Positions 1,233-49,300 of a DNA stretch of 64,000 nucleotides are shown one piece after another. How positions within the stretch are numbered: the first letter of the stretch is position 1; each line of letters starts with the position of its first letter. A program made the translations under genes and the position numbers. The stretch is from Candidatus Krumholzibacteriia bacterium. GTDB taxonomy: Bacteria; Krumholzibacteriota; Krumholzibacteriia; Krumholzibacteriales; Krumholzibacteriaceae. The stretch lies in the NCBI GenBank assembly GCA_963836185.1, contig CAWIIQ010000002.1, positions 320,001 to 384,000 of the forward strand. Direction: 5' to 3'. Under the pieces are notes generated by a model. The model did not search any database. It was given only the letters and a program-made list of their open reading frames with translations, and was not told where the DNA came from.

Positions 1233-1297
1233 TCAGTCGAGGATCGCGAAGCTATCAGTCGAGGATCGCTAAGCTATCAATCGAGGATCGCGAAGCT
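1233..1297. repeat. 22-bp tandem repeat x3 matching the 3' end and stop codon of GWxTD paralog 1
   Basis: TCA(G/A)TCGAGGATCGC(G/T)AAGCT(A) at 1233, 1255, 1277; copy 3 encodes SFAILD* on the minus strand. Confidence 0.9.
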
Positions 1298-2459
1298 TGA
1301 TGTCTGCTCCGTGCTTTTCCACTTAGTGCGGTCAGTGACCTTCACCTTCAGCACAAAACGGCCGCTCCAGAGATTGTCGGTATTGATCTCGAGTCTCATC
1401 GGCTGCTGAGAGCCGAACCCGCTAGCCTTGAAGTCGGCGCTGATCCCCGTTTTCTGGTCGACGTAGACGAGCCCCCATCTCTTCTTCTCGGTCGGCGTTA
1501 CGGTGTATTCCACTTCGTAGAACCCGAAGTCCTCCTTGTCCACGTCAAGACCGTAGATCTCGAAATAGAAAGCTATCGGGAATGACTTCCTGTAGAGGTG
1601 AAGCGGATAGGGGATCATGATCAGGTTCCCTTTCCTGTATCTGCTGTTCTCGTCCCCGTCGCTTATTCTTCTGGCGAACTGGATATCGCTTATCGCCAGG
1701 CCGTGACCGCAGGTCAGCCGCTTGTTTGTGCGGAAGACGCCCCTGCTTCCCGATTTCCTGTCGATAGTTTCAAGCCCGAACCTGTAATAGCCAGGGTCAA
1801 GGGTCATGATGATCTGCCCGGGCAGGTATGCCGGTACCCTGGCGTCGTCTGTGTTCGGCACGGAGACCCTCAACAATTCAGCGGCCTCATCTATCTCTTT
1901 CATGTCGAGGCCCCAGACCTTCACGCGCAGTTCCACTTCGCCCTCGAGCCGGGTGCCGGAAGTATCGAACGTTATCTCAGAGACAGGTATCTCAAAGTTG
2001 ATCTCGGTCCTTAATTTGTCTGGTCCCGAGTGGAACGATGTGATGTCAAAGTACGCCTGCATGTCGAAATCGAATCCCGGATAATGGATGAATCTGGTCG
2101 ACATAATCTGATGATGGAAATCATACAGTGCCTTGTCTGCCATGATATATTCATCGGTCACGTTCTTGAATACGGTTTCCCTGATAGCCCATCTGATTTC
2201 AGCATTCCTGACAAAATCGAGAGCATCAGGATTTAATGTGTTTACGGGATCGGTAAGATCCGGATCGATGTGCATTGGAAGGAACTTGAAGCTGACCGCA
2301 TACTCGACCTGTCCCATGACTTTGTCGACCTTACAGCCTGTTGAAGAGGGTCTCCTCGTCGAAGACCTGGTAGTCTTCAGACTTGAGGAAGGAGGCGGCA
2401 GCGAGCATGAGACATGACAAGACCATAACCGACACGTTGTGCGTGTTCAGAAATCGCAT
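1277..2459 (-). pseudogene. GWxTD-family paralog 1 with the GWxTD domain deleted (signal-peptide fragment 2331-2459 plus C-terminal ORF 1277-2317)
   Basis: 2459-2331 reads MRFLNT...AASFLKSEDYQVFDEETLFNRL*, matching paralog 2 EDYRVFDEETLFNRL; ORF 1277..2317 aligns to the C-terminal ~350 aa of paralog 2 (identical STRFIHYPGFDFDMQAYFDITSFH). Confidence 0.75.
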
Positions 2460-2502
2460 TGTTACTGATGCCCCTCGGTAACACCCCTCTGTGGTGGGAT
2501 CA

Positions 2503-4338
2503 CTACTCGAGTATAGAGAAACTTGTCACCGTTTCAACCGATTTTCGCGTGCGCCTGTCCATCACGCGGACGCGGAGACGGTAACTTCCTTCCCAGAGGT
2601 CCCTGCTGTCGATCTCGAGGCGCTCGCACTGGGTCGAACCGAACCCCGAGGCGTTGAACTTCGAGCTGATCACCGTACCCATATCCCTGTATATTGGGCC
2701 CCAGCGCTTTTTTTCCGTGGGCGCGACCTCATATTCGATCTCGTAGAGCCCCAGTCCTTCCTTATCCGCATCAAGGCCGTAGATCTCGAAGTAAAAAGCT
2801 ATAGGGAACGATGTCTTATATAGGTGCAGGGGATAGGGGATGACGATCAGGCTGCCCTTCCTGTATCTGCTGTTCTGGTCCCCTTCGCTGATCCTCCTGG
2901 CGAACTGGATATCGCTGAGCGAAAGTTCCTCGCCGCAGGTCAGCCGGCGGGTAGTCCGGAAGACACCCCTGCTTCCGGAGTTGATATCGATCGTCTCGAG
3001 CCCGAACCTGTAATAGCCCGGCTCCAGCGTCAGCAGGACCTGGCCGGGGAGGTAGGCCGGCACCTTCGCGTCTTCTGTATTGGGAACAGAGACCGTGACC
3101 CTCTCTGTCTTTTCAGCGATCTCATCGTATCTCATGTCCCAGACCTTGACCCGCAGCTCCGCATGCGCCTCGAGGTTCGTTCCGCTGGTGTCGAAGGAGA
3201 TTTCGGAGACAGGTATCTCGAAATTCACCTCGGTCCTGAGTTTCCCCTGTCCCGCGTGAAAAGAGGTGATATCGAAGTAGGCCTGCATGTCGAAGTCGAA
3301 TCCGGGGTAATGGATGAACCTCGTCGATATGACCTGGCGATGATATTCATACAGGGCCTTGTCGGACCTGACATATTCATCGGTGACGTTCCTGAATGCG
3401 ACATCCATGAGGCGGTTCCTTGAGACGTCATGGTAACGGATGTAGTCGATCGCGTCGGGATTGAGCGAGTTGCGCGGATCGCTCAGGTCGGGATCGAGAT
3501 ATACCGGGAGAAAACTGTTGATGATGGAAGACTTGCCCAGAGAGTTGTCGGTATGATACATATGCGTGCTCAGGTCCATGACGGGCCGTTCATGGTATAT
3601 CGCCGCGGCCGCGCCTTTTCTTGAAAGGTCCATCGGCCTGTCATAGCCCTGTGCTTCTCTCGGAGTAAAAGTGGGTACTGTCACTGCATCCGCCGTAGAA
3701 TTATTCGGGTGATATATATCGGCCAGTTCCTCGAGGACCATCCTCGAGCTCTTGCCGAAATTGCCGTTGTAATAATCTTCCGTCCAGGATTCGCGGCCGG
3801 CCGCTTCGGAAGAGCGGACAAACTTTCCAGAGAGGTATGCGTCGCTGAAAGTCACCAGCATCGGCGGGGACCAGTAGTACCAGATCTCGGCGGGCCAGCG
3901 TTGCTCAAGCCTGTATACCTCCGACCACACCCTCTTTATCGAATCGGGCATGCCGAATCTTATAAGTGTCTCCCCCCGGTCGTCCCATCCGGGAGGATCG
4001 AAGCAGCCGAATCTTTCGACGGCGAGCTTGACCCTTTCGAAATGTTCCTTCCTACGTTCGTTCTGTCTGGTCGTCGGCGTCGGGTCCATCTCGAGCCAGA
4101 AGCGGCGGAGCCATTCTTCCCTTTCGTCCCGCGTCTCGAGGGAAAGGTATTGTCTCTTCTGATGATCGTTGAGGATATACTGAAGACCGTTGTACCGGAC
4201 TCTCTCCCTGTAGTGGAGCCTGTTGAAGAGAGTCTCCTCGTCGAAGACCCGGTAGTCTTCTGCCTGCAGGAGTGCGGCGGCCGAGATCAAACACAATACA
4301 GCAGCCGCCGCTGCGAAGCGAGCGTGCGGAGTAACCAT
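2503..4338 (-). CDS. GWxTD-domain exported protein, paralog 2 (611 aa)
   Basis: Signal peptide; FWLEMDPTPTTRQNERRKEHFERV and GWDDRGETLIRFGMPD resemble the GWxTD domain; C-terminal beta-rich region with LSDIQFA and FYFEIYGL. Confidence 0.8.
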   Translation of the reverse strand: MVTPHARFAAAAAVLCLISAAALLQAEDYRVFDEETLFNRLHYRERVRYNGLQYILNDHQKRQYLSLETRDEREEWLRRFWLEMDPTPTTRQNERRKEHFERVKLAVERFGCFDPPGWDDRGETLIRFGMPDSIKRVWSEVYRLEQRWPAEIWYYWSPPMLVTFSDAYLSGKFVRSSEAAGRESWTEDYYNGNFGKSSRMVLEELADIYHPNNSTADAVTVPTFTPREAQGYDRPMDLSRKGAAAAIYHERPVMDLSTHMYHTDNSLGKSSIINSFLPVYLDPDLSDPRNSLNPDAIDYIRYHDVSRNRLMDVAFRNVTDEYVRSDKALYEYHRQVISTRFIHYPGFDFDMQAYFDITSFHAGQGKLRTEVNFEIPVSEISFDTSGTNLEAHAELRVKVWDMRYDEIAEKTERVTVSVPNTEDAKVPAYLPGQVLLTLEPGYYRFGLETIDINSGSRGVFRTTRRLTCGEELSLSDIQFARRISEGDQNSRYRKGSLIVIPYPLHLYKTSFPIAFYFEIYGLDADKEGLGLYEIEYEVAPTEKKRWGPIYRDMGTVISSKFNASGFGSTQCERLEIDSRDLWEGSYRLRVRVMDRRTRKSVETVTSFSILE

Positions 4339-4440
4339 ATTAATTTTCCCCTGTATCTCCCCGCGGTGGGATCCCTGTCTAAATATAGGGCGATTTGCCG
4401 CCGCTTCAACGACAAATAAAAAAATGTATGTTAATAAGAA

Positions 4441-5991
4441 TTATTCCAGGATGGAGAAGCTCGTCTGTGTTTCAACCGATTTTCTCGTGCGCCTGTCCAT
4501 CACGCGGACGCGGAGGCGGAAGCTTCCTTCCCAGAGGTCTTTGCTGTCGATCTCGAGGCGCTCGTGCTGCGTCGAGCCGAATCCCGAGGCGTTGACCTTC
4601 GAGCTCATCACAGTGGCGACATCCTTGTATACCGGCCCCTCGCGCTTCTTCTCCTTCGGTTCTACCGAATACTCCACTTCCCAGAACCCGAAATCCTCCT
4701 CGTCGAGGTCGAGGCCGTATATCTCGAAGTAGAACTTCACCGGGTCGGGCTTGCGGTAGGCGTGTACGGGGTGGGGGATCACACGCAGCGGCCCCTTGAT
4801 GAAACTTGTCCGTCCGCCCGCATCGGTCGATAGAGCTGGCGAGCTGTATGTCGCTCACGCTGAAGGAATCGCCCATCGCCGTTATATTCCTGCTCGTGAG
4901 AAATACGCCGTGCTTCTTCGATCCTTCGGTCCCTGACCTCGAGGCCGAACCTGTAGTATCCAGGATCGAGGGTGAGGATGAACTGGGCCGGAAGAAGCCA
5001 CGGAGAGTCGGGCTCCGGTTTCTCGGGAAGGTCGATATCGACCACATCCATGCCCGAGACGACCTCTTCCATGTTCAGGTCATATACAGCGACCTTCACC
5101 TCGAAATCTGTCTTGAATCCCTCGCGGACCTTTTCGAAGGTGAGTTCCCTCGCCGGTATCTCGAAGTTGACCTCTGTGCGCACCTTGCCCTGGCCGCCCC
5201 TGAAGTTCGTGATGTCGAAGTAGCAGGGGAGGGGCTGGCGTGCGATGTCGGCCGTGTGAAAGTGCCTGTTGTGCTCGAGATTCGAGTAGAAGTTCAACAG
5301 CTGCGGGGCTCGCCGGAGAAGAACAGGTCATAGACGTTCGAGCTGGAGTAGTGTCATCGACTCGAGGCAATCACTGTAATAGTCATCGAGCTCTCGGTAA
5401 GGATATTGTGGTCGTTATCCGTCCTTACCTCCATGAAGTAGATCATGCTCTCCGCTGAGATTCACGTCCTCGAATGGGACGACCATGCCGAGCCTGGGAT
5501 AGTGCCAGACCTCTCCCGGCATCTTGATGTCCTCGGCGCTGTTCTGGTTGCTTGGTGCGTCGAATCCGCCGATATTCCCGGGGATGTCGGCTATGACACG
5601 CAGGTTTGCCGAACCTGATCAGAGTCTCGCCGCGGTGGTCCCAGCCGGGAAAGCCTTCCTTCGGGTACTGCTCCCTCGCGTCCTTCACCCGCTGCTCGTG
5701 CTCGATCCTTCGCTCGTTCTTCCTGGTGGCCGGTGTCGGGTCGTTCAGTTTCCAGAACCTCGCTATCCAGTCGTCGCGTTCTTTCCTCGTCGGAGTCTTC
5801 AGATAGTGCAGCTTCTGGTAATTGTTCATCAGGTAGCGCAGCCCTTCGTAGCGGCGCTTCTCGTACCGGTCGAGCTGGCTGAAGAGCTCTTCCTCGTCGA
5901 AGGGGACATCGTATCCTTCAGCCGCGATGGCTGAGGGGAGCATGCAGGCAAGCAGGACGATCAGGATCAGATATCTCAAAAAGGCGGACAT
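4441..5991 (-). CDS. GWxTD-domain exported protein, paralog 3 (split by several frameshifts)
   Basis: Colinear fragments: 5443..5991 (FWKLNDPTPATRKNE, GWDHRGETLIRFG), 4779..5297 (FDITNFRGGQGKVRTEVNFEIP), 4441..4782 (FYFEIYGL...TSFSILE). Confidence 0.75.
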
Positions 5992-6038
5992 CGACCGTGC
6001 CTTTCGCTGAACGGAGATATATACAGGCGGCGGGGTCC

Positions 6039-7616
6039 CTACTCCAGTATAGAGAAGTTGGCGATCTTTTCAACAGATTCACGCGTCCGGCGGTCCTTTA
6101 CGGTGATGATCAGCCTGAACGAGCCTTCCCAGAGGTTGCCGGTCGCTATCTCGAGCCGCTGCGGTTGAGTCGAACCGAACCCGCTCGCCTCGAACTTCGA
6201 TTCGACGGCGGTATCCATCTCCTCGAGGGTCAGCCCTGTTTTCTTCTTCGAGACAGGGACGACCCGGTACTCGACCTCGTAGAGGGCGAATCCCTCCTCG
6301 TCGGTATCGAGGCCGTAAATCTCGAAATAGAAAGTCAGGGGGTAGGGGATCCTGTAGGCGTGGAGGGGATGGGGGACGACCTGAAGGTTCCCCTTCTGGT
6401 ACCTGACGGTCTTGTCGACCTGCGTGATCGTGCTGGCCAGCAGGATATCGCTCAGGGCGAGTCCCTTGTCCATGGGCGGGAGCTCGACGTTCGCCCGGTA
6501 GACGCCCATCCTTCCCGACTTGAGGTCGTGCGCTTCGATACCTATCCGGTAGTAACCCGGATCGAGGGTGACGGCGACCTGCCCGGGGATATACGACGGC
6601 CCGTCGAAGGTCTGGCCCCCTTCCTGGGTCGCGCCGGTGAATTCGGAGGCGGACGCGACTTCCTTCATGTCGATGTCGCGGACCATCACGCTCAGTTCCA
6701 CACCCGCGCTCAGGATGCCGTCCCTGCGTTCGAAGACGAGCTCCCTGGTCGGCACCTCGAAGTTGACCTCGGTGCGGATCTTGCCTTCTCCCGCGTTGAA
6801 CGAGGTGATGTCGAAGGCGACGGGGAGGAGGTCCTCGTCCATCTCGAACGAATAGATCGTCGGTTTGTCCTCGAGATACATGTAGAAGTTGTTCTTCGAT
6901 TCGCGGAGCTGGTCCTGCCTGACGACGTCCTCGAAACTCCTCGTCGCGAGCTGCGCCCTGAGGTCGGGGGAGGCGACGTAATCGATATTGTCGGGATTGA
7001 AGTTCTTCAGCGCCATCAGCGCGGAGCCCTGGTCGAGCTGCATCTCCTCGATCGGCACAAGCTTCGAGTGCTCGGAGACGGCCCTCATCTTGTCGAGCGT
7101 CTCTCTCGCCGACATCGCCTGCGGCTCGATCGCGAATATATGTATGCCGTTGAGGTTGAAGTCGTGGAAAAGTATCGTCATGTCGAGCCTGTAATAGTAC
7201 CACATCTCGCCGGGGGGCAGCATCCTGTAGAAGCCGATGTTTGCCGGGAAGTGCGACCGTACCCCGGGCCATCCCCACCTGATGAGGCATTCGCCCCTTT
7301 TGTCCCAGCCGGGCGCCTTCTTCATGCCGAACTCGCCGCGGGCGAGCCTGACCCTCAGGTCGTGCTCTATCCTGCGCTCGTTCTCGCTGGTCGCCGGCGT
7401 CGGGTCGTTCATCGCCCACCACCGCTCGAGCCATTCGTCCCGCCCGGCCCTCGTCGGCTGGGAGAGGTAATGACGTTTTTCATGGTCATTCAGCGAGTAG
7501 CGGAGGCCGAAGTATGTGAGCCTCTCCTCGGGTTCGATCTTTCTGAGGAGGTCGTTCTCTCCCTTGAAGTCCTCGGAACGCGCGGCGGGCAGGCGCAGAG
7601 ATGCGAGGAGGATCAA
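6039..7616 (-). CDS. GWxTD-domain exported protein, paralog 4 (~525 aa; start uncertain)
   Basis: WWAMNDPTPATSENERRIEHDLRV, GWDKRGECLIRWGWP, same C-terminal domains ending FSILE. Confidence 0.8.
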   Translation of the reverse strand: MILLASLRLPAARSEDFKGENDLLRKIEPEERLTYFGLRYSLNDHEKRHYLSQPTRAGRDEWLERWWAMNDPTPATSENERRIEHDLRVRLARGEFGMKKAPGWDKRGECLIRWGWPGVRSHFPANIGFYRMLPPGEMWYYYRLDMTILFHDFNLNGIHIFAIEPQAMSARETLDKMRAVSEHSKLVPIEEMQLDQGSALMALKNFNPDNIDYVASPDLRAQLATRSFEDVVRQDQLRESKNNFYMYLEDKPTIYSFEMDEDLLPVAFDITSFNAGEGKIRTEVNFEVPTRELVFERRDGILSAGVELSVMVRDIDMKEVASASEFTGATQEGGQTFDGPSYIPGQVAVTLDPGYYRIGIEAHDLKSGRMGVYRANVELPPMDKGLALSDILLASTITQVDKTVRYQKGNLQVVPHPLHAYRIPYPLTFYFEIYGLDTDEEGFALYEVEYRVVPVSKKKTGLTLEEMDTAVESKFEASGFGSTQPQRLEIATGNLWEGSFRLIITVKDRRTRESVEKIANFSILE

Positions 7617-7705
7617 GATTGTGATGGCACTGTACGTTATATCGGTATTTCTCAGTCTCGGGGCATGAACGGGATATCAATATAATAAACATTGTTACTT
7701 CTTTC

Positions 7706-8785
7706 CTACTTGTTCGCCCTCCACAGCAGGACGGCTCCGAGGAGGACGAATATGATATTGCCCATCCAGGCGCCGAGCAGGGGGTGAAGCACACCGCTGT
7801 GCCCGAGCGACTGGCCGACGCGCAGGATCCCGTAGTACATGAAACTTATAAGCAGTGTCAGCCCGAACCCGGTGGCCATCGACGGCTTTCTTTTCGCCGA
7901 GGACAGGGCCACCCCGATGATCGCGAAGATAAAGGCTGTAAACGGGAAGCTGAACTTGAAGTATAGATCGACGAGGTACTTGTCGATTGCGCCCCCGCCC
8001 CTTCTGATCTTGTCGATATGCTCTCTCAGCTCGAGGAAGTTCATCTCCTCGGGAGTGATCTCCTCCTTGGCGATGTCTTCCGGTCTCTCGGGAAGGTGGG
8101 GCATCTCCATCCTCTGGAATGTCGTGACCGTCTCGCCGGCCTCCTGGAAATCCCTGACCGCCCCATCCATGAAGACCCATTTCGAGCCGTCCCAGAAAGC
8201 CTTCTTGGCGTCTACGCGGCGGACGAGCTTCGCGTCCTCATGCTCGTGCAGCGCGACATTGAGCAGCACGCTCAGCTTGATGTCGTATCTCTCGGCGTAC
8301 CAGGTCCGGTTGCCTTCGCCCTGGTAATGAAGGTTCTTCCTGTACTTGAAGCTGTCACTTTCCCTGCTCCCCTTGATATCGACCGACATTATCTTGTCGG
8401 CCCGCCGATTGGCGTAGGGTACGATGAATTCGCTGAAGACAAGCGAGGCAAGGCTGATCAGCAGGGCGGAGAGAAGTATCGGCCTCGCTATCCTCGTCAG
8501 GGGCATTCCCGCCACCACCAGCGCGGTGAGCTCGTTTTCCCGCGACAGCCGTCCGAGTGTAAACACGGTCGAGAGAAGGACCGAGATCGGCATCGTCAGG
8601 AGAATTATCCATGGGAGCTGAAAGAGGTAGTACGACGAGACCTCGCCCATCGTCGCCTTGCTGTCGTAGTAATCGTCAGATTTTTCGCTGAGGTCGACTG
8701 TGACATAGATCACCGTAAAGGCGATGAAGCCTATGATCAGGTTTCTCCAGAACCCTCCGAGTATATAGCGATCGTGGATCCTCAC
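7706..8785 (-). CDS. lptG: LPS export ABC transporter permease LptG
   Basis: YjgP/YjgQ pattern: DRYI N-terminus, LSRENELTAL, three TM + periplasmic domain + three TM, GAWMGNIIF. Confidence 0.88.
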   Translation of the reverse strand: MRIHDRYILGGFWRNLIIGFIAFTVIYVTVDLSEKSDDYYDSKATMGEVSSYYLFQLPWIILLTMPISVLLSTVFTLGRLSRENELTALVVAGMPLTRIARPILLSALLISLASLVFSEFIVPYANRRADKIMSVDIKGSRESDSFKYRKNLHYQGEGNRTWYAERYDIKLSVLLNVALHEHEDAKLVRRVDAKKAFWDGSKWVFMDGAVRDFQEAGETVTTFQRMEMPHLPERPEDIAKEEITPEEMNFLELREHIDKIRRGGGAIDKYLVDLYFKFSFPFTAFIFAIIGVALSSAKRKPSMATGFGLTLLISFMYYGILRVGQSLGHSGVLHPLLGAWMGNIIFVLLGAVLLWRANK

Positions 8786-8831
8786 GGCTGGTATTTACCC
8801 CTGGAAAAGCACGAGGTTCCCTGCTGTCGGG

Positions 8832-10232
8832 TTACAATATACCCGCAGCGCGCTTCTGCCGCCAACGTTTTAAGATGTTAAAGCGGTCCCAGTTGATAGT
8901 CTGCGACTCGCGGACGGTGCTCCAGAGGAGCAGCCCGGCGGCGCCGAGGAGGACGATATTGGGGAGCCACATCGCGAGCCAGGGCTCGAGCACCCTCCTG
9001 TCGGCGAGTTTTTCCCCGGTGATCAGGAAGACGTAGTAGACGAGGAAGAAGATGATAGAGAAGGAGATCGACATCGTCATCCCCTTCTTTCCCGACCTGA
9101 TGGCGAGCGGAGCGCCGAGCAGGACGAATATCAGGCAGCTGAACGGTATCGAGTATTTCTTGTGGATCTCGACCTCGTACCTCGATATCTGCTGATCGAG
9201 GCCGGTGATCCTTCTCATTATCGTCTCGAGCGCATACATCTGCTGCTCGGCGGGATTTTTGGCGTTCTGCTGAGCGCGCTGTTCGGCACGGCTCGTCGGG
9301 GGTTCGGGCGCCTCCCGGGCTTCGCCCTTGAATGCGTCGAAGGCCATCACTCTCGAGAGGTTCCCGACCATATCCTTCTCGGCGCTGATGTGCATGTCCC
9401 TGCTGTAGCCGGCTATCTCCCCCTGCAGCTGCCTGACCTTTTCGCGCATCATCCCCCCGCTCATCTCGCGGTCCCCCCGGTACGAGCGCCGGGAGCGCGC
9501 GAGTCCACGGTCGGTATCCTTTATGTTGATCGTGAAGTTGCTGAAAAGGGTCTTCCTGTATGTCGAGATGTCGGACGGGTCGGGCATCTCGTGTATCTCT
9601 CCATCCTGGAGCTCGAATCTGAGGACATTCTCCGACTCGATGAACGACATCCTGCCCCGGTCGGCGACGATAGTCGTGGGCACCATCCCTTTCTTGGTGC
9701 GGAAGATCTGTACATCCTCGATCTTTCCCGTCTTGTCGTCTTTCTCCCTGACGAGGATCGTGTAGCCATCGACGGCCGAACTGAAGATGTTTTCCTTGAT
9801 CTCGAGGGTCGGTTTCATCTTTCCGATATCGAGCATCAGGTTCATCAGCCGGTGGTTGGCCTCGGGGAGGATGATGTTCTGGTAATAGACGAGGCCGGCG
9901 CCGAGGAAGAGGGAGGCGATGATGACCGGGGCTATCATCCGGTAGAGGGAGACCCCCGTCGCTCTCATCGCCGTGACCTCATTTTCGGAGGCGAACTGGC
10001 CGAAAGCCATTAGGGTAGCGGGCATTACAGCCATTGGAATGATTAATGCGAACATATGACCGAGGCTGAGGAAAAAGAATTCGAGAACGACGAAGAATCC
10101 GACTCCTTTGTCTATAAACATATCGAGATAACGGATGATGAAATCCATGATAAATATGAAGGTGATTATGATGATACTGAAGAGATACGGAGGTATGTGG
10201 CTCTTCAGTATGTATCGATCAAGTATGTACAT
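8832..10232 (-). CDS. lptF: LPS export ABC transporter permease LptF (extended periplasmic region)
   Basis: ILDRYIL, SENEVTAMRATGVS, EIHKKYSIPFSC, AMWLPNI; tandem with lptG. Confidence 0.88.
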   Translation of the reverse strand: MYILDRYILKSHIPPYLFSIIIITFIFIMDFIIRYLDMFIDKGVGFFVVLEFFFLSLGHMFALIIPMAVMPATLMAFGQFASENEVTAMRATGVSLYRMIAPVIIASLFLGAGLVYYQNIILPEANHRLMNLMLDIGKMKPTLEIKENIFSSAVDGYTILVREKDDKTGKIEDVQIFRTKKGMVPTTIVADRGRMSFIESENVLRFELQDGEIHEMPDPSDISTYRKTLFSNFTINIKDTDRGLARSRRSYRGDREMSGGMMREKVRQLQGEIAGYSRDMHISAEKDMVGNLSRVMAFDAFKGEAREAPEPPTSRAEQRAQQNAKNPAEQQMYALETIMRRITGLDQQISRYEVEIHKKYSIPFSCLIFVLLGAPLAIRSGKKGMTMSISFSIIFFLVYYVFLITGEKLADRRVLEPWLAMWLPNIVLLGAAGLLLWSTVRESQTINWDRFNILKRWRQKRAAGIL

Positions 10233-10572
10233 GACAACAGCTTAGTTTAAAGTAAATCTTCCGGCGCGTCGCGGATCGTACCTTTCGGTCAGGTGCAACG
10301 ATCGTTCCGGCGGCGCCGGCCGGAAGTGATGAAATAACGGATATCCGGCCTGTCCGCTCCCCTGGTCGCTTGATAAAAGAGGCCTCAAGGGGATTTCTAT
10401 ACCTGTACCCGATAGTGGACAGGACAGGTGTATTCTGTCCCCGTAACGGGACATCGCCGAGCCCCATTCGAACCGGCAGTCAGCCGGGCCGACGGCGCTT
10501 TCATCGCCCGGTAATTTATCACATATCCGCGTGCGGATGACAGCCTATTCTGAATGCTTGCCCGGAGGGTAA

Positions 10573-13500
10573 GTGATGACGCCCGGACCGGACAGAAAAG
10601 AGAACCGGAGAGATAAGCTGCGGCGGAGTGCGCTTTCGACGGCGCTGCCTCTCCTTGTCCTCGCTCTTCTGTCTCCGCCCGCCGCCTCCCAGGCCAACGA
10701 TCCTGTATACCTGCTCGAGATCGACCTCCTGAAGATGTCCGATCAGCTCGATGTCCGCTACAGGTGGGCCGAGACAGGAGTGCTGCCCCCTGAATATATA
10801 CTCCTGGGCGACCCCGAAGGTGCCGTATTCATGTACCCCTCCTTTCTCAAACCGGAAAAGGAGTTCAGGAAGAATTACACCGAATACGATCCCGTCTCCG
10901 GCCAGCTCTACAGTTTTCAGGTGCCGGGGTACCAGATGTTTTCAAAGAAAGCGGAACGGTCCGGCCCCTATTTCATCGAGACCGGAAGGCCGATGGATGT
11001 CGAAGGGATGAAGATATCGATCACATCGATCGATCATCAGGCGGACGACCTTTGGAAGGAAGGGCTCCGGGTGGTCTGGGTGGACGATGTCAAGTATGCC
11101 CTTTCGACGAGAAAATCGTCACGCGGCGGCAGGGGCGGGCTGATCGATATCAATATCCCGATCTCGCTTCCGAAACAGCTCGAGGCGATCTTCGGCCGAG
11201 GCGAAGAGACGAGACTGACCGTGTCGGGAAGGGAAAAGATCACTATCGGCGGTACTTCGCGCTGGTGCGCCAACTGCCCCCGTACCGAGGGAATGCCCCA
11301 GCAGCAGAAGTTCCCCGACCTCGAGATGGAGCAGCAGCTCACAGTCAACCTCCACGGGACGATCGGCGAGAAGATCAACGTGGCGATCGACCATTCGAGC
11401 ATGGGTGGGGGAGCGCCGTCGACGAACAGGATCAGGCTGAACTACACCGGGTTCGACGACGAGATCATCAAGCTTATCGAGATGGGCGACACCGACCTGA
11501 CCCTTTCAGGAGCGCAGCTGATCAGTTACTCGGGACAGGCGAAGGGTCTCTTCGGCGTCAAGGGCGTCGCCCAGATCGGCCCGATCGACCTGACGGTCAT
11601 AGCGAGCAAGGAGGAGGGCGAGTCTTCCTCGGGCACCTTCTCGGCAACGGGAGGCCAGAGCAGCGAGATCTCCATAAACGATTACGCGTACATCAAGAGA
11701 CAGTTCTTCTATCTCGAATCGCCCGGCGATGACTACCAGGCCCCCGGGTTCGGAACTATATACCCGGTGATCGGCGGCTACGACAGTCTCGAGGTCTTCG
11801 CGTCCCTTCGGCCGGATCTGGAATGGAACAACTTCAGCCCGAAGTATTACATCAAGGCGTGGACGGATCCGGGAAACACGGGGGACCTGTACCTGGGGGA
11901 GAGTTTCGCGCAGTGGTTCTACCTGCTTGTAGAGGGGAGGGATTACGACCTGATACAGGTCTACGGGGGGGAAAGCACCACGCCTAAATATCTTGGTATA
12001 AGGCTGAGGCAGCCCCTTGGAGAAAACAGGGCGCTCGCTGTAAGGTACAAGATGGACCTGGGCAACGGCGATCATACGGTAGTAGGAGATTATAATTATT
12101 TCCCGCCCCTGCCCGACACACTGGTCGTAGTCCCCGACGAATCGACGTGGATAACAGCCGAGCTCATCTGTCCTCCCGAGGACGATTTCCTGCCTTCGTC
12201 CGTTCCGGGCGCGAAGTACACCTCGACATGGAACATGATGTTCAGAAACGTCTACTCGATCGGCCTGAGCGGACTCGATGACGCAGCCATAAATGTGAAG
12301 ATCAGGGATCGCAGAACGGTCATCGGCACAGCCGAAATAAACGATTTCTCGAACGAGAGCTACCTGAGGATATTCGGCCTCGACCGATACAAGTCGACGG
12401 GGGCATGGGGGGAGGACGGATTTGTCGATAACAGGCAGGGTGTGATCGACTTCAACGATGGATATATCATGTTCCCATCGTATCGTCCGTTCGATATCAC
12501 CGAGTACGAACTGCAGAGGTATTTCAGTGAATCCGAGAACAATATTTCGAGCGATCCTGAACTGATAGCATCGGTGGAGGCCCTCAGCGACACGCTGAGG
12601 AGAAACAGCTCGATATACAATGAGATCCTCGACAAGAACAGCCCGGCCAACGAGTACGAGATAATCATCGAGGCATCGAGCGGAAACCGCGTGTTCAACC
12701 TCGCCGCCTTCGACATACTCGATGGAACGGAAGTCGTCATGGTCGATGGTGTGAGGCTCTCAAGGGGCTCCGACTACGACATCGACTATATCGGCGGTTC
12801 GGTGACCCTCAAGGGTGATTACGCCAACCTGCCTCCCGATGCGAGCGTGAAGATCGATTATCAGCACAAACCTCTTTTCGGCGGGGGTAAAAGCTCGCTG
12901 CTCGGCATCGGAGCCAACCTCTACCTCTCGGAGAACGCGAGGATCAACGCTACATACCTGTATAACTCGGTAGGCGCCCCTAAATACAGGCCCAGGCTCG
13001 GAGAGGAACCGACACGGAACATGGCCGGTGATATCAACGGATCGTTCCAGTTTCAGCCGGGATGGATGACGTCTCTGGCTAACATGCTCCCCATGGTCAA
13101 TACCGACGCGGCAAGCAGCCTGAGCCTGACCGGTGAGATAGCGATGAGCATCCCCAATCCCAATACGAAGGGAGAGGCCTATATAGACGACATGGAGGGG
13201 GTCGAGGACAGCGATCAGATCAACCTCGTCCGCGCCCAGTGGTACGAGGCCAGCCCCCCGATAAGTCCCCTCGATTCAGTGACCGTGCTTCCTCCTCTGC
13301 CGCCGGAGAAGGAATTTTTCTGGTACAACCCGGCCAACACCAACGAGCAGCAGTTTCTGACGACGAGCAAGAAGGATCTCAATCCGAACCTGGACGACCG
13401 GGAGAACTCGAGGCAGACCTCGATGTTTATCAAGGCCTGGGAACCGGATCTCAACCAGTGGTCGGGGATCATGACGGGATTTACAGGCGGGATCGATCTT

Positions 13501-16500
13501 TCTACGTCGCAGTACATCGAGATATGGGTCAACGACTATACGGTGGACCAGGATGACAGGCGGGGAGTGCTGCATATCGATTTCGGAAAGATCGATGAGG
13601 ATTTCCATCAGCCCGAGTTGAACCGGCACGACAACGAGAACGCTATCAACTGGACGAACGAGGCCGACACCGGGTTCGTCGGCGAAAAGTATGAAGATAG
13701 GCCGTTCAACAGGGATTTCAACGAGGACAAGTTCGACGAGGTCATGGGCGTATACATGTGGATCAACTCGAGGTTCGGGAACTCCAGGGCTGACAACGAG
13801 GACATGAACGGGAACGGCCGCCTCGATGAGAGCAACGAGTACTATACCATCGCGCTCGACCTCGCTGACACGGCGATAATCGATGTACAGAGGGATTTCT
13901 CCGGGGTCACCGAATACTGGAATGATCCCGAGAAGGGATCGATCAACAGGCAAAAGAGCTGGAGGATGTACAGGCTCGATATCACCAAGGCGGCGCGGAT
14001 GGGCGACCTGGCTCCCAGGCTCGACAAGATCTCCCATATGAGGATCTGGGTGGAGAACATCGATCAGGTCCAGGCGATCACGCAGACTGACAGGTCCCCC
14101 GATAACATGGTTGAGATCACAGGGGTCAAGTTCGTCGGCAGCAGGTGGGAGTACAACAATGTAAGGGACCTTGCCAATCATGAGGTCCCGATCAATCCCG
14201 ATACCCTGGACCCCGCCCATGAAGGTCAATCTGGGGACGATAAACAACAAGGACAACCCTTCGATCTACACGACGCCATATCCGCCCGATGTCGAGGAAG
14301 GGATACAGAACCGCGAACAATCCCTGCTGTTCGCGGTCGAGAACTTCCATCCGGGCTATTCGTTCAAGTCGATGAAGCGATTCTTCGGGGCAGGGCCTGA
14401 GTTTCATGCAGTACGAGGAGATCCAGTTCTTCATCCGCCCTGACAACGACCTTGTCGGCGGAGTGGCAGAGCAGGACAGTATGGAGTTCTTCCTGCAGAT
14501 CGCATACGACAGCCTCAACTATTATGAGATGGCCATACCCCTCAAGGACGCGCTGGCGAACAAATGGCAGTGGGTCAACATACGGATGAGCGACCTGACG
14601 AACATGAAGATCGACGCGGTGCCCGGCAAGATAACCGAAAAGGAGATCACCGATACGGCCGATCCGTCAATGACATATATGGGGAGGCTCCGGGGCGATC
14701 CCAGCCTGTTCAGGGTGAGATTTCTGTTCGCCGGGATCAGGTATCCTCGCGGAGAAGAAAGGGCGAAGGGTACTCTGTGGTTCAACGACATCGCCCTTGG
14801 ATGGGTGCGCAAGGATATCGATCATGCGGAAAGGGTCGGCTTGTCGGCGAGTTTCGCCAATGTATTGTCATTGAATGCCAGCTACCAGAGGACCGGCCCC
14901 GAGTTCAGGTCGCTGAAGCAGAAGGCAGGAAGCGGCACGACGAGCGACAATTTTCTCATGTCGGGCAAGACCGAGATCAATCACATCATCCCGACACTCG
15001 GGTTCACTATCCCTATCACCGGGAAATACAGCAAGTCGCAGTCGAAGCCGAAGTATCTCTCGCAGAGCGACGTGGAGATTGCCGACGAGGCGGTCCAGGA
15101 ATCGCAGAAGACGATAAGAAACAGTTACTCATACAGTCTCTCAATGAGCAGGCGCGGTTCGAAGAACCTGATAATGAAGCACCTGTTCGACAATCTCAAA
15201 GCGGGCGCCAGTTACTCGAAGTCCAACCTCGCATCGCCGACGGTGCTGGATACGTCGTGGTCATACAGCTGGAACACGAACTACCAGATCCAGTTCAGCA
15301 AGGACCGGAAGCTGAATCTCTTCAAGGGAATCGGTTTCAGGTACTGGCTCACGAGCTTTTCCTACAACGCGGCCGGCTCGAAGGCTCTGAAGAACACATA
15401 TTCGTACAACGGTGAAAGGTATATCAAGAGCCCGACAGGATTCTCGCACAACTGGAACAACGAGATGTCGATGAGCTACGATCCGTTCGAGTCGATCAAG
15501 ATCAACTTCCGGAGGAACGAAAAACGGAACATGATGAATTACCGGGAGTTCTACGGAATTCCCATCGGAAAGCTCTACGACTACAGGGAGAGCTTCGAGT
15601 TTCAGTACCAGCCTCGCGGACAGGTGTGGCTGCTCTCGCAGTTCAACCCGAGATTCGAGTATACATCGCGATACGGAGAGAACCTCAATCCGAGTTTGAG
15701 AGGGCCCGGCGATCCCGAAGACACGAGAAACGTCAGCAGCGAGAGACAGATCAATGTCGTCTTTGATGTCGACATCGGTGGATACGCCATCGATTTCGGT
15801 AAGTTGATCAGGGTGTTCGGTGAAGACGAGACGGCAGTGAGTATGCCAGGATCTTCCGGCGCCACGCTTGACAAGCAGAAGGAGGATTTCAGGAGCAAAT
15901 TCGACGGCAGGGTGAAGTCGGACCAGGGGGAAGGCCTGGGCGAGAGAAAGTCGCTTGTCGATGATGCTCCGCAGCAGGAGCCGCCGCCAGAGGGGCAGGA
16001 AGAAGGTGAACAGGAAGAGAAGAAGGGCGCCTACTCGGATCTGATGGTCCAGAAGCCGCGAGGGGAGATAGCCGGGCTGGGACAACCGAAGACAGACGAG
16101 GAGAAGGCCGCCGAGGCGGATACGATCAAGAAACCGAGGGGGGACTCCTGGAGACTGGTCAAAATGGCCCTGAGGTTTGTCGGCAGGATAGATCCGATAA
16201 AGAGCGCTATCCGTATCGATGACAGGAGCAGCTATCAGCGTCTGTACGAGAGGGCGAGCCTCGCTTACCGTTTCGGTTTCGACCGTGGATCGGGCGTGAT
16301 CGGTTCCTCGTGCACTGAGGAAGAATGTTCGCCTGAGAACGATCCGAACAGAGCTTCGAAGAGGATCAATCTCGATCTCAGGTCGGGCCTCGACCTGACC
16401 AGCAACATCTCGGCCGATATACGCTTCAATATGTCGAGGAACACCGATGAGGCCGATGCCAGGTTGACTGAGTCCGAGAACATGACCTGGCCCGACATAG

Positions 16501-17046
16501 CCGTGAACTGGAAGGGCCTGGAGAACTGGGGGCTGCTCAGAGGACTGGTGAAATCGCAGCAACTTCACTATCAACTATATAAGGAAGACGACGAAGAGTA
16601 TCGCGGTCGACAGGCAGGAATTACGCGTTGAGTCCCAACTGGAGCCTTACCTGGAAGAACACGCTCTCGACGAACCTGTCGTTCTCATTCAGCAAGCAGA
16701 CGAAGATCGAAAAGAACCAGGAGATCTGGGACCAGACATGGTCGGGTAATCTCGAGCTGCGCTACGACATCAAGGGATCGAAAGGGCATATCGATACCCG
16801 GACTCGGCAGCAGGCTGTCGTTCGAAAGTAACTTTGACCACGGTACTTAACCTCGGTTACAGTTCGACGGAGAGCCATAATCTGCCTGCGTCGACTGTCT
16901 TGACGGTCTCTCCCCGTTTCACATATACTTTCAGCCGGAATATTTCGGGAAGCCTGACGCTCAACTACAGGAGGGTGGCAGGCGGCAGGTACGGGTACAT
17001 CAACCACGAGGTCGGGCTTCATGCATCCGCGGAATTCAAATTCTAG
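10573..17046 (+). CDS. sprA: SprA/Sov-family outer-membrane protein (type IX secretion translocon homolog), ~2,100 aa, split by about 4 indels
   Basis: Signal peptide; GTIGEKINV, YTGFDDEIIKLIEMGD, GLFGVK, GEEPTRN, AYIDDMEG, YIEIWV, LHIDFGKIDED, EDMNGNGRLD, LWFNDI; colinear ORFs 10573, 14171, 14406, 16628, 16834; ends ...SAEFKF with a terminal Phe like a beta-barrel. Confidence 0.85.
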
Positions 17047-17050
17047 TACA

Positions 17051-17956
17051 TTGCGGAGGCTCGTCTCATCGGCGCCCTTCCTGACCGCAGTAGTCCTCAC
17101 CGCTTTTACAAGCTGCGGTTCCGGCAGCGTGCCGGAGTTCGACAGCGAGTCAGCGTTCACTTTTCTCGAGGAGCAGGTCGATATCGGATTTCGCTACCCG
17201 GGCTCTCCCGAGCATACGCGGCTGCAGAGGTACCTGACAGACAAGCTGCGGGATTTCGGCGCTGATGTCTCCCTTCAGCCGTTCGACGCTGTGCTGACGA
17301 CCGGAGATACGCTGCACCTGATCAACATCATCGGTAATTACAACAAGGGGGCATCGAAGCGGATCATGCTCGCCGCCCATTACGATACCAGGCCGTTCGC
17401 CGACCGGGATCCCGATCCCGCGAATCGCGACAAGCCGATCCACGGAGCTAACGATGGAGCGAGCGGAGTCGCCGTCCTGCTCGAGATAGCGAGGCTTCTC
17501 GGAAACCACGAACCGCCCGTCGGAGTAGACATCGTCCTTTTCGATGGAGAGGATTACGGCAGGGAAGGTTCGCCGGCCGACTATTGTCTCGGTTCGGGCC
17601 ACTTTGCCAGGAGGCTGAGGGGGTACAAACCGTCGGCTGCGATCGTGATCGACATGATCGGAGACAGTGATCTGGAGATTCCAATGGAGGGGTACTCGAG
17701 GGCCGCTTCGCCCGCCCTCCTCGGTGAGCTGTTCGATATCGCAGATCAGCTTGGTTACGAGCAGTTCAGCAGGAAAAAGCTCGGCGCCATAATAGACGAC
17801 CATCTGCCCCTGATACAGGCTGGCGTCAACGCTGTCGACCTGATCGATTTCGAATATGAATACTGGCACACCCTCGAGGACACTCCCGACAAGTGTTCGC
17901 CCGGATCGCTTGAAGCTGTCGGGAATGTGCTTCTGCACTACATCTGGCGGCAGTAA
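17051..17956 (+). CDS. M28-family lipoprotein, probable glutaminyl-peptide cyclotransferase (start uncertain)
   Basis: Lipobox-like AFTSC; AHYDTRP, GANDGASGVAVLLEIAR, FDGEDYG, YCLGS, DMIG, DDH, YWHT. Confidence 0.75.
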   Translation: MRRLVSSAPFLTAVVLTAFTSCGSGSVPEFDSESAFTFLEEQVDIGFRYPGSPEHTRLQRYLTDKLRDFGADVSLQPFDAVLTTGDTLHLINIIGNYNKGASKRIMLAAHYDTRPFADRDPDPANRDKPIHGANDGASGVAVLLEIARLLGNHEPPVGVDIVLFDGEDYGREGSPADYCLGSGHFARRLRGYKPSAAIVIDMIGDSDLEIPMEGYSRAASPALLGELFDIADQLGYEQFSRKKLGAIIDDHLPLIQAGVNAVDLIDFEYEYWHTLEDTPDKCSPGSLEAVGNVLLHYIWRQ

Positions 17957-31326: not shown

Positions 31327-32469
31327 TCATTCGCGGGCCAGAGCATAATCGCGTCCGCTGTCGCCCATCCTGTACACGATGCCTGACTGGTGGACCTGCG
31401 ATATCGTGTCGCGGGTGACGAACTTCCTGACGACGAGTATCTCGAGCGTAAAGGGATAGGTGCCCTTGACGGCGAAGTATTCCTCGAGGCCTTCGCTTAC
31501 CGTTGCCTCGAGCCGCCGCAGCTGGAATTCCGGGAGATCGGCCGACAGCATCCCTTCGCCGGATGAAGCCGCCGCCCTGGAATCGCTCGAGAAGGCCTCG
31601 GCGGTCCATCCCGGCGGCAGGATCGCGGGCACGACATATTCACCGGCAAAGAAGCATGCGATAAGCATGAAGACTACAGCGAGGGTCGGAGCGAATTTCT
31701 TTCCGCTCTTTGCTTTCTCTTCGAGGACCTCTTCCTCGATCTGCTCGGCTACCGGGCTCGTGTCCTTCGTGATCTCGAGCAGCTCTTTCTCGAGCAGGAG
31801 CTTGAGGGCCTCATAGGTGCTGAACCTCGCCATACGGGAGTGCGCCATCAGCTCGGATATGCTCGTCTCTTCGGACAGCATGTTGTAGAGGACCTCTTCG
31901 TTCTTCTCCAGCTTGGCGCTGCTGCCCGTCGGCGCGGGAAGCCGGCGAACGACTATCTCATCCGAAGGGAATATCCTCTGCATCTCGGGGAGCTCATCGA
32001 TGCGTCTCATGCTCTCCATCAGGAGCCCCTCGACCTTGATGGCCGAGAAGGTCCGGACGCCGACGAGGACTCCGCTGCCGCTGACGAACTTGTAGTAACT
32101 CTTCGGCCAGGAGAGGACCTCCTGGACCGTCTCGTATATCTGCTCGTTGAATATCGTGCTCAGCTCGTCGTCCGAGAAGTACTTCTCCTGAAGCAGGATG
32201 TCGGTCAGGTCCATGCCGGACCTCGCCTGGATCTGCTGCAGGTTGTTCATCTCGTCGCGGCCGATAAAGCCGTACCTGAGAAGGTATTCCTTGAGGGGAT
32301 CGCGCGATCTGGCCCTGCGGTCCCTCGTCGAGACGATAAGGCCGTCCTGGAAGAATATTGCCATATTCTCGTCACCCGAGACCGAGAGCATCCCGGATTT
32401 CTTCTGGATCGAGATGAGCTGGAATATCTCACTCAGCCCGAAATCCTTGGCGTTGCCTTCCAGTGCCAT
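31327..32469 (-). CDS. DUF4388-domain membrane protein
   Basis: MALEGNAKDFGLSEIFQLISIQKKSGML, LLMESMRRIDE; one TM; C-terminal LEEYFAVKGTYPFTLEILV. Confidence 0.85.
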   Translation of the reverse strand: MALEGNAKDFGLSEIFQLISIQKKSGMLSVSGDENMAIFFQDGLIVSTRDRRARSRDPLKEYLLRYGFIGRDEMNNLQQIQARSGMDLTDILLQEKYFSDDELSTIFNEQIYETVQEVLSWPKSYYKFVSGSGVLVGVRTFSAIKVEGLLMESMRRIDELPEMQRIFPSDEIVVRRLPAPTGSSAKLEKNEEVLYNMLSEETSISELMAHSRMARFSTYEALKLLLEKELLEITKDTSPVAEQIEEEVLEEKAKSGKKFAPTLAVVFMLIACFFAGEYVVPAILPPGWTAEAFSSDSRAAASSGEGMLSADLPEFQLRRLEATVSEGLEEYFAVKGTYPFTLEILVVRKFVTRDTISQVHQSGIVYRMGDSGRDYALARE

Positions 32470-32481
32470 CGATCTTCCTTC

Positions 32482-37845: not shown

Positions 37846-38160
37846 GCCTGCATGGAGACTGTGATTTTTCGGATGTGACGGCCGGGCAAGGGTCGGCCGT
37901 CACACCCGGTTCGAGCATCGTCGGAGGGGCAACCAGGGGATTCAGCGATCACATTACAGGAGTGTGGCTTCTTGTCCGGCTGACGCCGGATCAGGAGGGG
38001 GAGAGGCATTCTTGTCTCGATTTTACACAGGGACTATCCCGAAAACATACATGACAACCGCGAGGGGAGGTATGCGATGACCGGATTGTCACCGTAACCT
38101 CGACCGCAGGGGTACGGGTTTAACTGATAGTTGCTTCTCAACTGTTTAGGAGGGGGTACC

Positions 38161-41100
38161 ATGAAAAGACTCGCGTTAGTGTCCGCACTCTGTCTTCTCG
38201 TCTGCTTTTCGCTGACGGCAGGATCGAAGGCGGCTACTCTGAACGTCCCCGGTGACTACGCAACGGTCCAGGCGGCGATAGACGCGGCGGTAGCTGGTGA
38301 CGAGATCGTCATAGCTGCCGGGACCTGGACTGAGAACATCACAATAAACAAGACTCTCACACTGAAAGGTGCACAGGCCGGTATCGACGCTAGAGGCAGG
38401 ACAGGTTCCGAGACGATCCTGACCTGCGCCTCCGGGCACCTCGTGACAGTCGCCGCGGTCGACGTGGTCCTCGATGGACTCACGATGACCGGTACCGCAG
38501 CGGCCGGACGTCTCGGCAACTGCGACAGCCACGGCTCAGGATTCGAGATGCGCAACTGCGTCATGGACGGAGTCGCGCAGAGAGGTTTCTGGTTCAACGT
38601 CACATCACCGGACATCGTGCTGGAGTACAATGTCTTCGATGCGGCCCTCTGGACCGATTCTTACTCTGTAGCGCACTTCGACGGCTCCGACGTATTCAAC
38701 GATCTGTACATCGGAAACAACGAGTTCACCGGTGGTTCGATCTTCGCCGGGAACGTTACATTCAATTCATCTGGATTCCAGTTAGTCGACAACCTGTTCG
38801 ATGGCTGCTCCATGAATCTCGCATCAGCGTTCGAGAACGCGACTGTTTCGGGGAACATCTTCCGAAACAACGGCTACACGAACATGCAGGCGGCATTCAA
38901 GAACAGCACGATCTCCTACAACCAGTTCGAGGCAACGGGGCCTTCGCCCTACGCGGGCTACCCGTCCGCCTGCCTGCAGTTGTACGGGACAGATTACGGA
39001 TTGGCCTCAACTAATGTGACTATCGAAGGAAACACATTCGAGTTCAACGGTTCTGCCGCGCCGGCCGATCCGGCCAACGGCATACGCTTCCGTGCGGGAC
39101 TCGATGCCTCGACGATCACGGTCCGCGACAACGCCTTCATCGACGGCGGAGCCCAGGCTACCGCCCTTGCGGTGAGGCACCAGGGGACCGGCGACGCTGA
39201 CGCCTCCGGCAACTGGTGGGGATCGAATGATCCTGCTGGCGTGAACGCGCTTGCCAACGGCGGAACGCTCGTCGATTACACCCCGTGGCTCGATACTGGT
39301 ACGGACAACCGTCCCGGGATCGGCTTCGAGGGCGATTTCTCCGCTCTGCACGTCGATGACGACAGCCCCCAGACGGGCATCGTCGGGATCGCGCAGGAGG
39401 GTATCGACCTCGTCGACGGCAGCACCGTCTATATCCATGACGGCACCTACGAGGAGCAGCTTGATATCGGCAAGGATCTCGTCCTCCAGGGAGACGGCCT
39501 GGGTACGGAGATCCTCTCACCCGATCTTCTGGCGCTCTCATGGGCCACGAGCAAGGATTATCGTGCGATCATATATATCCATGATGCTGATGCCGAGATC
39601 CGCGACATAACACTGAACGGAGCCGGCAAGGGGAACGCGAATACAGGGTTCCTCGGTGTCGGGTTCAGGAACGCGGGCGGCGGCATCTATGACTGCGATA
39701 TCCTCGACATCCGAAACACGCCGTTCAGCGGCGCACAGTATGGTGTCGGTATCAGTTCCTGGAACGACGATCTGACCTCACGGTCGATCGATGTCCACGG
39801 CTGTACGCTCACCGGATTCCAGAAGAACGCTATGGCGCTCAATGCCGACGTGACGACAGGCCTTGCGGTCGATGTCCGCGGTAACACGATCACCGGTGCG
39901 GGCGCGACTACAGTAACAGCGCAGAACGGTGTGCAGGTCTATGGTGACATCGCCACCGGTACCATAGCGGACAACGTCATAAGCGGGATCGCTTACGACA
40001 ATACAGCCGATGTCACGAAGTGGGTAGCGACCAGCATCCTGAATTACTATGCTGATGTCGATATCACCGGCAATACGATCACGGCTGCCCACATGGGTAT
40101 CTACAATATCGACGGTGCAGGCCTGATCAGCGAAAACGACCTGACGATCGAGAAGATCGGTGTATACGCTTTCGGTATCATCGGCAGCGATCCGCCGAAG
40201 GCTGTTCCCTCTCCGGCAGGGATGGATGACATGCCAGTCGGTTCTTCGAGGCCTTTCGACGGGGCGCCTCTCGCCCTGCTCGATGTCGACATACTCGACA
40301 ATGTCGTGACATTCACCGGCCCTGACAATACGGCGACCTTCGGTATCGAAGTAGATGCCGGCTGGGGACCGAATGATCTCGATGCGACGATCAATGGAAA
40401 CATCGTCACCGGTTTCGAGGTTGGTATCGAGGTATATACCTGCGAGAGCGGTTGCGCCGCCGGTATCTTCACCGCGGTCGATGCCAGATTCAACGGCCTG
40501 TTCAGCAATACACTGGCTGTCCGTTCGAATGTCGACACGATCACAGTCGATGCCTCGGGCAACTGGCTCGGATCAAACGTCCCCGCGGCGCTCATCGCGG
40601 GTACACTCGATTACACTCCGTGGCTCGACGTCGGAACAGACATGAGTACCGACATCGGGTTCCAGGGTGATTTCTCCGCCCTGCACGTCGATGACGACAG
40701 CCCGCAGACGGGCCTTGTCGGAATCGTGCAGGAGGGAATCGATATGGTCGACGGCAGCACCGTCTACATCCACGACGGTACATACGAGGAGCAGCTCGAG
40801 ATCACAAGCGATCTCGTCCTTCAGGGAGACGGCGCGGGGACTGTGATCCTTTCGCCAGACGCCCTTCCGCTCTTCTTTACCACGGGTACACTCAACAACT
40901 ACCCGGTCGTCTATATCCACGACACAGACGATGTGGAGATAAACGATCTCACCGTCGACGGCGCGGGAAAGGGTAACGCGAACTACAGGTTCCTCGGGAT
41001 CGGATACCGCAACGCAGGCGGAGGAGTCTACGACTGCTCGATCCTCGGGATCATGGACACCCCGTTCAGCGGCGCGCAGCACGGCGTAGCGATGTACTTG

Positions 41101-49269: not shown

Positions 49270-49300
49270 TCAGCAGGTGACGTGCAGGAAGGGCAGCCGA

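Follow-up and report, generated by a model that had tools for sequence, protein, structure and literature searches.

Can a type 9 secretion system (T9SS) carry its cargo through the outer membrane of a bacterium in whose genome the pore is encoded and no motor can be recognised? The question is raised by a 64,000-nucleotide stretch of DNA (the window; contig CAWIIQ010000002.1, positions 320,001 to 384,000; G000:C2:320001-384000 in our numbering) from the genome (3.5 Mb, 92.5% complete) of Candidatus Krumholzibacteriia bacterium, in which sprA, the gene of the T9SS outer-membrane translocon, stands head-to-head with the lipopolysaccharide (LPS) export genes lptF and lptG, themselves followed by an array of genes for GWxTD-domain proteins. 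Here, we identify the locus as that of the pore of a T9SS with SprA, PorV shuttles, PorU, about 100 cargo proteins, and no recognisable GldKLMN; cargo likely exits without a rotary motor, and the GWxTD proteins are likely optional periplasmic adaptors, not a link to LPS export. We regard this reading as probable, though well short of certain.

The pore gene, sprA/sov (window positions 10573..17046, plus strand), was interrupted by three frameshifts, placed near 14190, 14400, and 16560 by comparison with a same-genus protein, with its stop at 17046 and a C-terminal Phe. The first piece scored 329 bits and the second 107 bits against TIGR04189 (cut-off, 200), and the product matched F. johnsoniae SprA at E 3e-28. 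In most relatives sprA is a single open reading frame (ORF) of about 2,090 to 2,310 amino acids, versus 2,403 in the known T9SS. Because ahcY (101-892), uvrA (49277-51667), and gcvT (52170-52910) of the window also end prematurely in off-frame text, the breaks in sprA are likely assembly indels. On the other strand, lptF (8832..10232, minus) and lptG (7706..8785, minus) scored 279 and 291 bits against PF03739 in the family scan of window ORFs and fell slightly below the TIGR04407/04408 equivalog cut-offs; we assign them to LptF/LptG, as the only PF03739 pair in a genome that makes lipid A, with lptB, rpoN, and lpxC located elsewhere. A 340-bp divergent gap (10233-10572) separates lptF from sprA, and an M28-family lipoprotein gene (17021..17956, plus strand), orthologous to Bacteroidota type II glutaminyl cyclase (QC), begins within the end of sprA, so that its start overlaps the sprA stop. 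An earlier note on this DNA had described this divergent layout, the gap, and the M28 lipoprotein, all of which were confirmed by the ORF map and the family scans. In the single Bacteroidota record compared, sprA follows ruvA; here, it faces lptFG.

The outer-membrane part of the system was well represented in the genome and across the phylum (121 genomes, each at least 85% complete; related genomes are non-independent samples). SprA was found in 119 of the 121 genomes and in all 106 high-quality ones, and PorU in 120, over cut-off in 101 (554 bits against NF033707 in the source genome; cut-off, 420). The PorV family (NF033709) gave 14 matches in the source genome, 6 of them above cut-off; the gene of the best match is directly preceded by PorU, outside the window, and several others sit directly 3' of a cargo-like gene. 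Type A C-terminal domain (CTD) tails (TIGR04183) were matched 106 times, 105 above cut-off, including a 1961-amino-acid cargo protein in the window (38131..44016, plus strand; 35.2 bits). Shared with F. johnsoniae (SprA-PorV-GldKLMN) and P. gingivalis (Sov-PorV-PorU-PorKLMN) are SprA, PorV-family shuttles, PorU beside PorV, and type A CTD cargo. One secreted protein with a 5,372-codon open frame is followed by its own PorV-family gene (G000:C1:1280399-1297331), with cargo-PorV pairs of like kind at C1:1230943, C1:1969705, C2:136991, and C2:160643; some genomes carry two above-cut-off PorU copies (G081:C85, G088:C121, and G105).

Other components of the known systems were not found in limited scans. 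SprE/PorW (NF052312) was matched in none of 61 genomes at E 1e-20, with at most the best 15 candidates scored per genome; PorP (PF11751) had no match in the one genome searched, for which there was no control genome; and for PorZ, the protein that brings LPS to PorU, only the tail was matched, no full-length PorZ being found among the 71 of 125 candidates scored. A large TPR protein of the window (45621-49269, two overlapping ORFs) gave a sub-threshold PorW/SprE match (E 6e-12) among many TPR families and is a possible distant SprE stand-in.

The motor and its hub were not recognised. For GldM, TIGR03517 matched in 0/41 genomes and PF12081 in 0/121 over cut-off, with three weak matches; for GldL, PF22827 matched in 0/1 genome and TIGR03513 in 0/121 over cut-off, with two weak matches; and for GldN, TIGR03523 matched in 0/41 genomes and PF19841 in 0/121 over cut-off. 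GldK (TIGR03525, source genome only) reached at best 92 bits against a cut-off of 350, and the GldK-like matches were FGE-domain proteins in unrelated contexts, without GldL/M-like neighbours. A crude topology scan of 3,202 ORFs for GldL/GldM-like pairs returned none, and looser settings returned five, none convincing. At profile level, therefore, the GldL/GldM motor and the GldK/GldN hub of the canonical T9SS appear to be lacking, and the locus, T9SS-like yet without the motor of a canonical member, is a variant of the T9SS. The variant had been proposed in the earlier note, which reported no PorK/L/M/N, PorV, or PorU gene in the window and suggested searching the genome; scans of window ORFs (46, then 25) agreed, PorU matching only weakly on CTD tails, but PorV and PorU proved to lie elsewhere in the genome, where the PorL/M/N and PorK profiles gave nothing above cut-off.

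The neighbourhood of the pore was compared at 80 sprA loci from 79 genomes (G011 was omitted, its SprA match being weak). All 76 loci with upstream DNA had lptF head-to-head with sprA, and in 66 of the 74 with downstream DNA sprA was followed by the M28 QC gene. A GWxTD gene adjoined lptG in only 38 of 74 informative loci, so that, of the GWxTD-lptFG-sprA synteny whose conservation the earlier note proposed to test, the lptFG-sprA part is the constant one. The linkage divides by family (families labelled f1 to f9): a GWxTD gene came next after lptG in 38/38 informative loci of f1, f2, f3, f6, and f9 and in 0/36 of f4, f5, f7, and f8. A profile of the type represented by GW1, the lptG-proximal copy of the window, was matched in 65 of 121 genomes (at most the best 12 candidates scored per genome), namely, in every f1, f2, f3, f5, f6, f7, and f9 genome and 1/8 of f8; no match came from 49/49 f4 and 7/8 f8 genomes, although f4 and f8 keep SprA and lptFG (SprA in 47/49 of f4). 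The genes around 20 further loci of this type (from f5 and f7, and those of second copies) differed from one locus to another, with products such as a subtilase cargo, a phosphonate-type binding protein, and an RNA methylase; lptFG and sprA had no match among them. The conserved core is lptFG-sprA-QC; the GWxTD gene is optional, because it is unlinked in f4, f5, f7, and f8, not found in the f4 scan, and variably placed elsewhere. The coupling of LPS export with secretion by GWxTD proteins, which the earlier note had proposed, is not supported by this distribution; GWxTD clusters dominated by Acidobacteriota exist as well.

Because a pore, a shuttle, an attachment enzyme, and about 100 cargo genes are present but no recognisable motor gene is, export likely uses a different power source or none. 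In the mechanism that we propose, Sec would move cargo across the inner membrane, and the adjacent QC, to judge from its homology to the P. gingivalis enzyme, would cap N-terminal Gln; a PorV-family barrel, docked in SprA, would take up the cargo by its type A tail; the shuttle-cargo pair would then be released; and sprA and lptFG would stand under a shared divergent control region. For the release, we tentatively place most weight on a hypothetical passive step, which PorU would make one-way by cleaving the cargo and attaching it to a glycolipid of the surface; the weight left over from this step and from the two alternatives taken up next goes to another energiser. Several points count against a motor-free reading with optional GWxTD proteins. 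The Gld profiles, built from Bacteroidota, were run without a known-motor genome for positive control and would miss a motor that had diverged far. In F. johnsoniae, cargo loading is energy-free and extraction energy-dependent, and motor removal leaves cargo trapped on the pore, which speaks against a purely passive release; in the Bacteroidota studied, the motor is needed to draw the loaded shuttle away from SprA (PMC10994853). Attachment of cargo to LPS is putative, PorZ having been matched on its tail alone, and secretion in this uncultured phylum is a prediction from genes. Finally, the adjacency of GWxTD to lptG, without exception in the informative loci of five families, goes beyond what drift alone need give.

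A rather unlikely alternative is that the T9SS is TonB-powered: an ExbB-ExbD-ExbD-TonB complex would pull PorV shuttles by way of GWa, a GWxTD paralogue distinct from the lptG-linked type, in place of GldLM and the PorKN track. GWa was found in 119/121 genomes, nearly always single, within an operon ordered TonB-dependent receptor, usually a CTD protein, PorV-family barrel, GWa, ExbB, ExbD, ExbD, TonB, and TolC. Among 83 genomes picked non-randomly from the 119, the next gene upstream of GWa belonged to the PorV family in 75 of 78 that were informative, and the next one downstream was exbB in 78 of 82; the PorV-GWa pair was kept in f6 and f9, which lack the cargo gene that otherwise separates receptor from PorV. 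GWa and GW1 carry the same pair of immunoglobulin (Ig)-like domains (HHalign, 99.3%) with the domain order swapped, the GWxTD domain being N-terminal to the Ig pair in the window copies, the reverse of GWa. The ExbBD of this operon was the sole one with an adjoining TonB seen among four MotA/ExbB matches and is a candidate substitute energiser. All this fits a TonB-driven pull; however, the operon opens with a TonB-dependent receptor, one of four in the genome, which by itself could account for an ExbBD-TonB set. In 80 metagenome loci, a GWxTD gene followed close PorV orthologues in 20/21 cases with enough downstream DNA, but it was seen in 0/46 more distant PorV-family loci (local profile; many with little downstream DNA). 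The phylum-wide operon (G000:C4:967-19012; L109, L095, and L105) continues with an ABC ATPase, in many cases joined by a set of MacAB-like genes and another GWxTD gene (GWb); in G000, its receptor and GWa genes are frameshifted.

That a canonical-type motor is present but too divergent for the GldK/L/M/N profiles, and the system is an ordinary T9SS, we consider unlikely. Deep divergence is indicated by SprA itself, which matches its profile only piecewise, the motor is essential in the species studied (PMC10994853), and the motor profiles lacked the control genome mentioned above. Against this stand the strong matches of PorU, PorV, and CTD profiles in the same genomes, the failure of all six profiles for GldL, GldM, and GldN (two each) to yield anything above cut-off, FGE-domain genes that no GldL/M-like gene follows, and the empty or unconvincing topology scans. 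The same gap has moreover been published for Melioribacter and Ignavibacterium, in which only PorV, SprA, and Plug were reported, by BLAST in an oral database (PMC11705866); their partial T9SS is likewise a pore and shuttle without motor genes, and differs in that PorU and about 100 cargo tails occur here, in a pattern counted over 121 genomes.

Least of all do we credit the proposal of the earlier note, that lptG-linked GWxTD proteins span the periplasm between LptFG and SprA and tie LPS export to secretion, which is highly unlikely: these GWxTD proteins are exported and lack a CTD, the proximal copy evolves slowly, and both the lptG adjacency in five families and the invariant lptFG-sprA pairing agree with it, but the linkage fails in the four other families, the type was not found in f4 genomes that have SprA, the 20 loci elsewhere gave no lptFG or sprA match among their neighbours, and LptF/LptG lengths show no clear difference between families with and without the linked gene. 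LptFG, further, extracts LPS at the inner membrane, SprA forms a pore in the outer membrane, and it is at the cell surface, on PorU, that cargo and LPS come together.

The array itself followed the order given in the earlier note, lptF-lptG and then four GWxTD-like genes, of which only two proved intact. All are on the minus strand. GW1 (6039 to about 7652; start codon uncertain) is intact and lptG-proximal, with a signal-like N terminus, an N-terminal GWxTD domain, two Ig-like sandwiches, and no CTD. GW2 (4441..5991) is a paralogue spread over several frames (tblastn). GW3 (2503..4338) is intact, with 611 amino acids, a signal peptide, a GWxTD domain, and the Ig-like pair. GW4 (1277..2521) is a partial GW3 duplicate, consisting of an N-terminal piece (2334-2521) and a C-terminal ORF with the Ig pair (1277-2317); it is 74% identical to GW3 with the GWxTD domain deleted, and is a probable remnant or assembly artefact. 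TIGR04514 (cut-off, 28 bits) was exceeded by GW1 (41.3 bits), the N-terminal piece of GW2 (52.5 bits), and GW3 (69.4 bits), that is, by three of the four genes, and the cut-off of the Pfam family (PF20094) was reached by no window copy; the motif here reads GWDxRG. At least one GWxTD gene of some type occurred in 121/121 phylum genomes, and two or three copies in 8 of the 38 lptG-linked loci, all in f1. In a quick tree without bootstrap, lptG-proximal copies sat on short branches and extra copies on long ones, GW1 being slow-evolving and GW3 a fast-evolving paralogue. The four-copy array arose by tandem expansion, at family level, of a single gene that the lptFG operon carries at its end. In a same-genus genome (L031:15200-17200), a pair resembling an extracytoplasmic function sigma factor and an anti-sigma factor, named by inspection, is inserted in the GWxTD array and has at its end a short repeat of the 3' end of GWxTD. 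Another GWxTD protein of about 680 amino acids, TPR-like in appearance at its N terminus, is encoded at G000:C1:1562839-1564881.

In the GW1 model (predicted local distance difference test [pLDDT], 86), the GWxTD domain is followed by a helical linker and a pair of Ig-like sandwiches, and structure matches to the whole protein were generic Ig sandwiches (Z up to 11.4). Modelled alone (pLDDT, 88.5), the GWxTD domain had no Foldseek match at E 0.001, the best being VIA at Z 5.0 (death-domain helices); a weak likeness of its beta subdomain to the BLIP-like 3d4e (Z 3.8; root-mean-square deviation, 2.2; 49 aligned) is a lead only. No match to the SmpA/BamE family was found in a Pfam scan of 34 proteins, nor any significant match in a PDB sequence search with the GW1 profile. 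At E 0.001, 1,761 representative proteins matched the domain, and the Atlas clusters nearest to it were dominated by Gemmatimonadota, Acidobacteriota, and WOR-3.

The top PDB matches of the M28 protein encoded behind sprA were full-length (E 5e-57 to 5e-48), with Bacteroidota glutaminyl cyclases as the closest solved relatives (E 5e-57 to 2e-54), and it aligned gap-free with Bacteroidota QC at the segments that we take to hold the metal (zinc) ligands. With the type II QC of P. gingivalis and Bacteroides (PG2157; PDB 6QQL, 7CJE, and 4FUU) it shares the full-length match, a lipoprotein-type N terminus, and these segments; unlike theirs, the predicted QC gene here overlaps the end of sprA. Downstream of signal peptides, as located by a crude prediction, Gln was the most frequent residue (56/433), a weak sign for a cyclase. 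The P. gingivalis QC is an inner-membrane lipoprotein that acts after signal peptidase and does not control T9SS targeting (PMC5837995), and the position behind sprA fits a common job on exported proteins rather than a component of the pore.

Candidate control elements were sought in the lptF-sprA gap and its counterparts. A sigma-54-like -24/-12 element, GG-N10-GC, faces lptF on the minus strand (10295..10309) and was found post hoc; it recurs 76 to 81 bases before lptF in 13/22 gaps of f1 to f3. A strict sigma-54 pattern occurred in 2 and 4 of 77 gaps by strand, close to the 4.4% seen in shuffles, and did not pick up 10295-10309. Two copies of the palindrome TGTCC-N8-GGACA, candidate activator sites without assigned strand, lie at 10404..10421 (one mismatch) and 10436..10453 (exact). 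The palindrome was found post hoc by a k-mer scan of the gaps; with one mismatch allowed, it was present in 36/77 gaps versus 1.3% of shuffles and 8/152 coding stretches (19/22 in f1, 8/8 in f7, 3/3 in f5, 3/6 in f8, and 0/19 in f4), and among its 22 matches in the genome only the two of the window were flagged intergenic. A scan of the gaps for sigma-70 promoters and terminators gave no excess over shuffles. The genome has rpoN and five proteins with what we take to be the sigma-54 activator motif, and the spacing of element and palindromes fits a putative activator-dependent sigma-54 promoter for lptFG-GWxTD. Like the LptB2FG extractor, the locus has a single LptF/LptG pair with lptB elsewhere; unlike it, lptFG is head-to-head with sprA, behind the sigma-54-like element and upstream palindromes. 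Given this gene order and these motifs, sprA and the only lptFG pair probably share a divergent control region, under which the envelope genes would be regulated jointly.

Elsewhere in the window, three proteins (36228-36965, 37084-37845, and 44930-45475; no Pfam match) are among the genome's 28 small secreted proteins, many Cys-rich, whose C termini carry a TEExxWGxIK-type tail about 15 residues long; the earlier note had suggested WGAIK-tailed proteins as possible cargo. In Prevotella intermedia, short CTDs have 43 to 55 residues and do not resemble this tail (PMC11969387). At 31327-34498, a DUF4388 protein with a weak match to a cyclic di-GMP-binding motif is encoded beside a TPR protein of the membrane that has a Cys-rich segment.

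An early survey placed the T9SS in Bacteroidetes alone (PMC4793230), reviews allow that it may occur in further phyla of the Fibrobacteres-Chlorobi-Bacteroidetes (FCB) group (PMC11285876 and PMC11205867), and the system has been inferred to have first evolved within the gliding machinery (PMC12635249). Our search of main texts in open journals returned no study on GWxTD, a Krumholzibacteriota T9SS, or the WGxIK tail. An improbable composite would make the system an ancestral, pre-gliding T9SS, in which ExbB-ExbD-TonB, acting through a PorV-bound GWxTD adaptor, would extract SprA cargo in place of GldLM/PorKN, GWxTD proteins would be general periplasmic handles, and sprA and LPS export would be co-regulated by one sigma-54 region.

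The four-gene GWxTD array that marks this locus is a minor, lineage-specific feature. The conserved PorV-GWxTD-ExbBD-TonB operon offers a concrete candidate energiser and the first testable role for the GWxTD domain. A phylum that has a pore, shuttle, sortase, and large cargo set and no recognisable motor genes would imply motor-free export, another energiser, or an outer-membrane module older than gliding.

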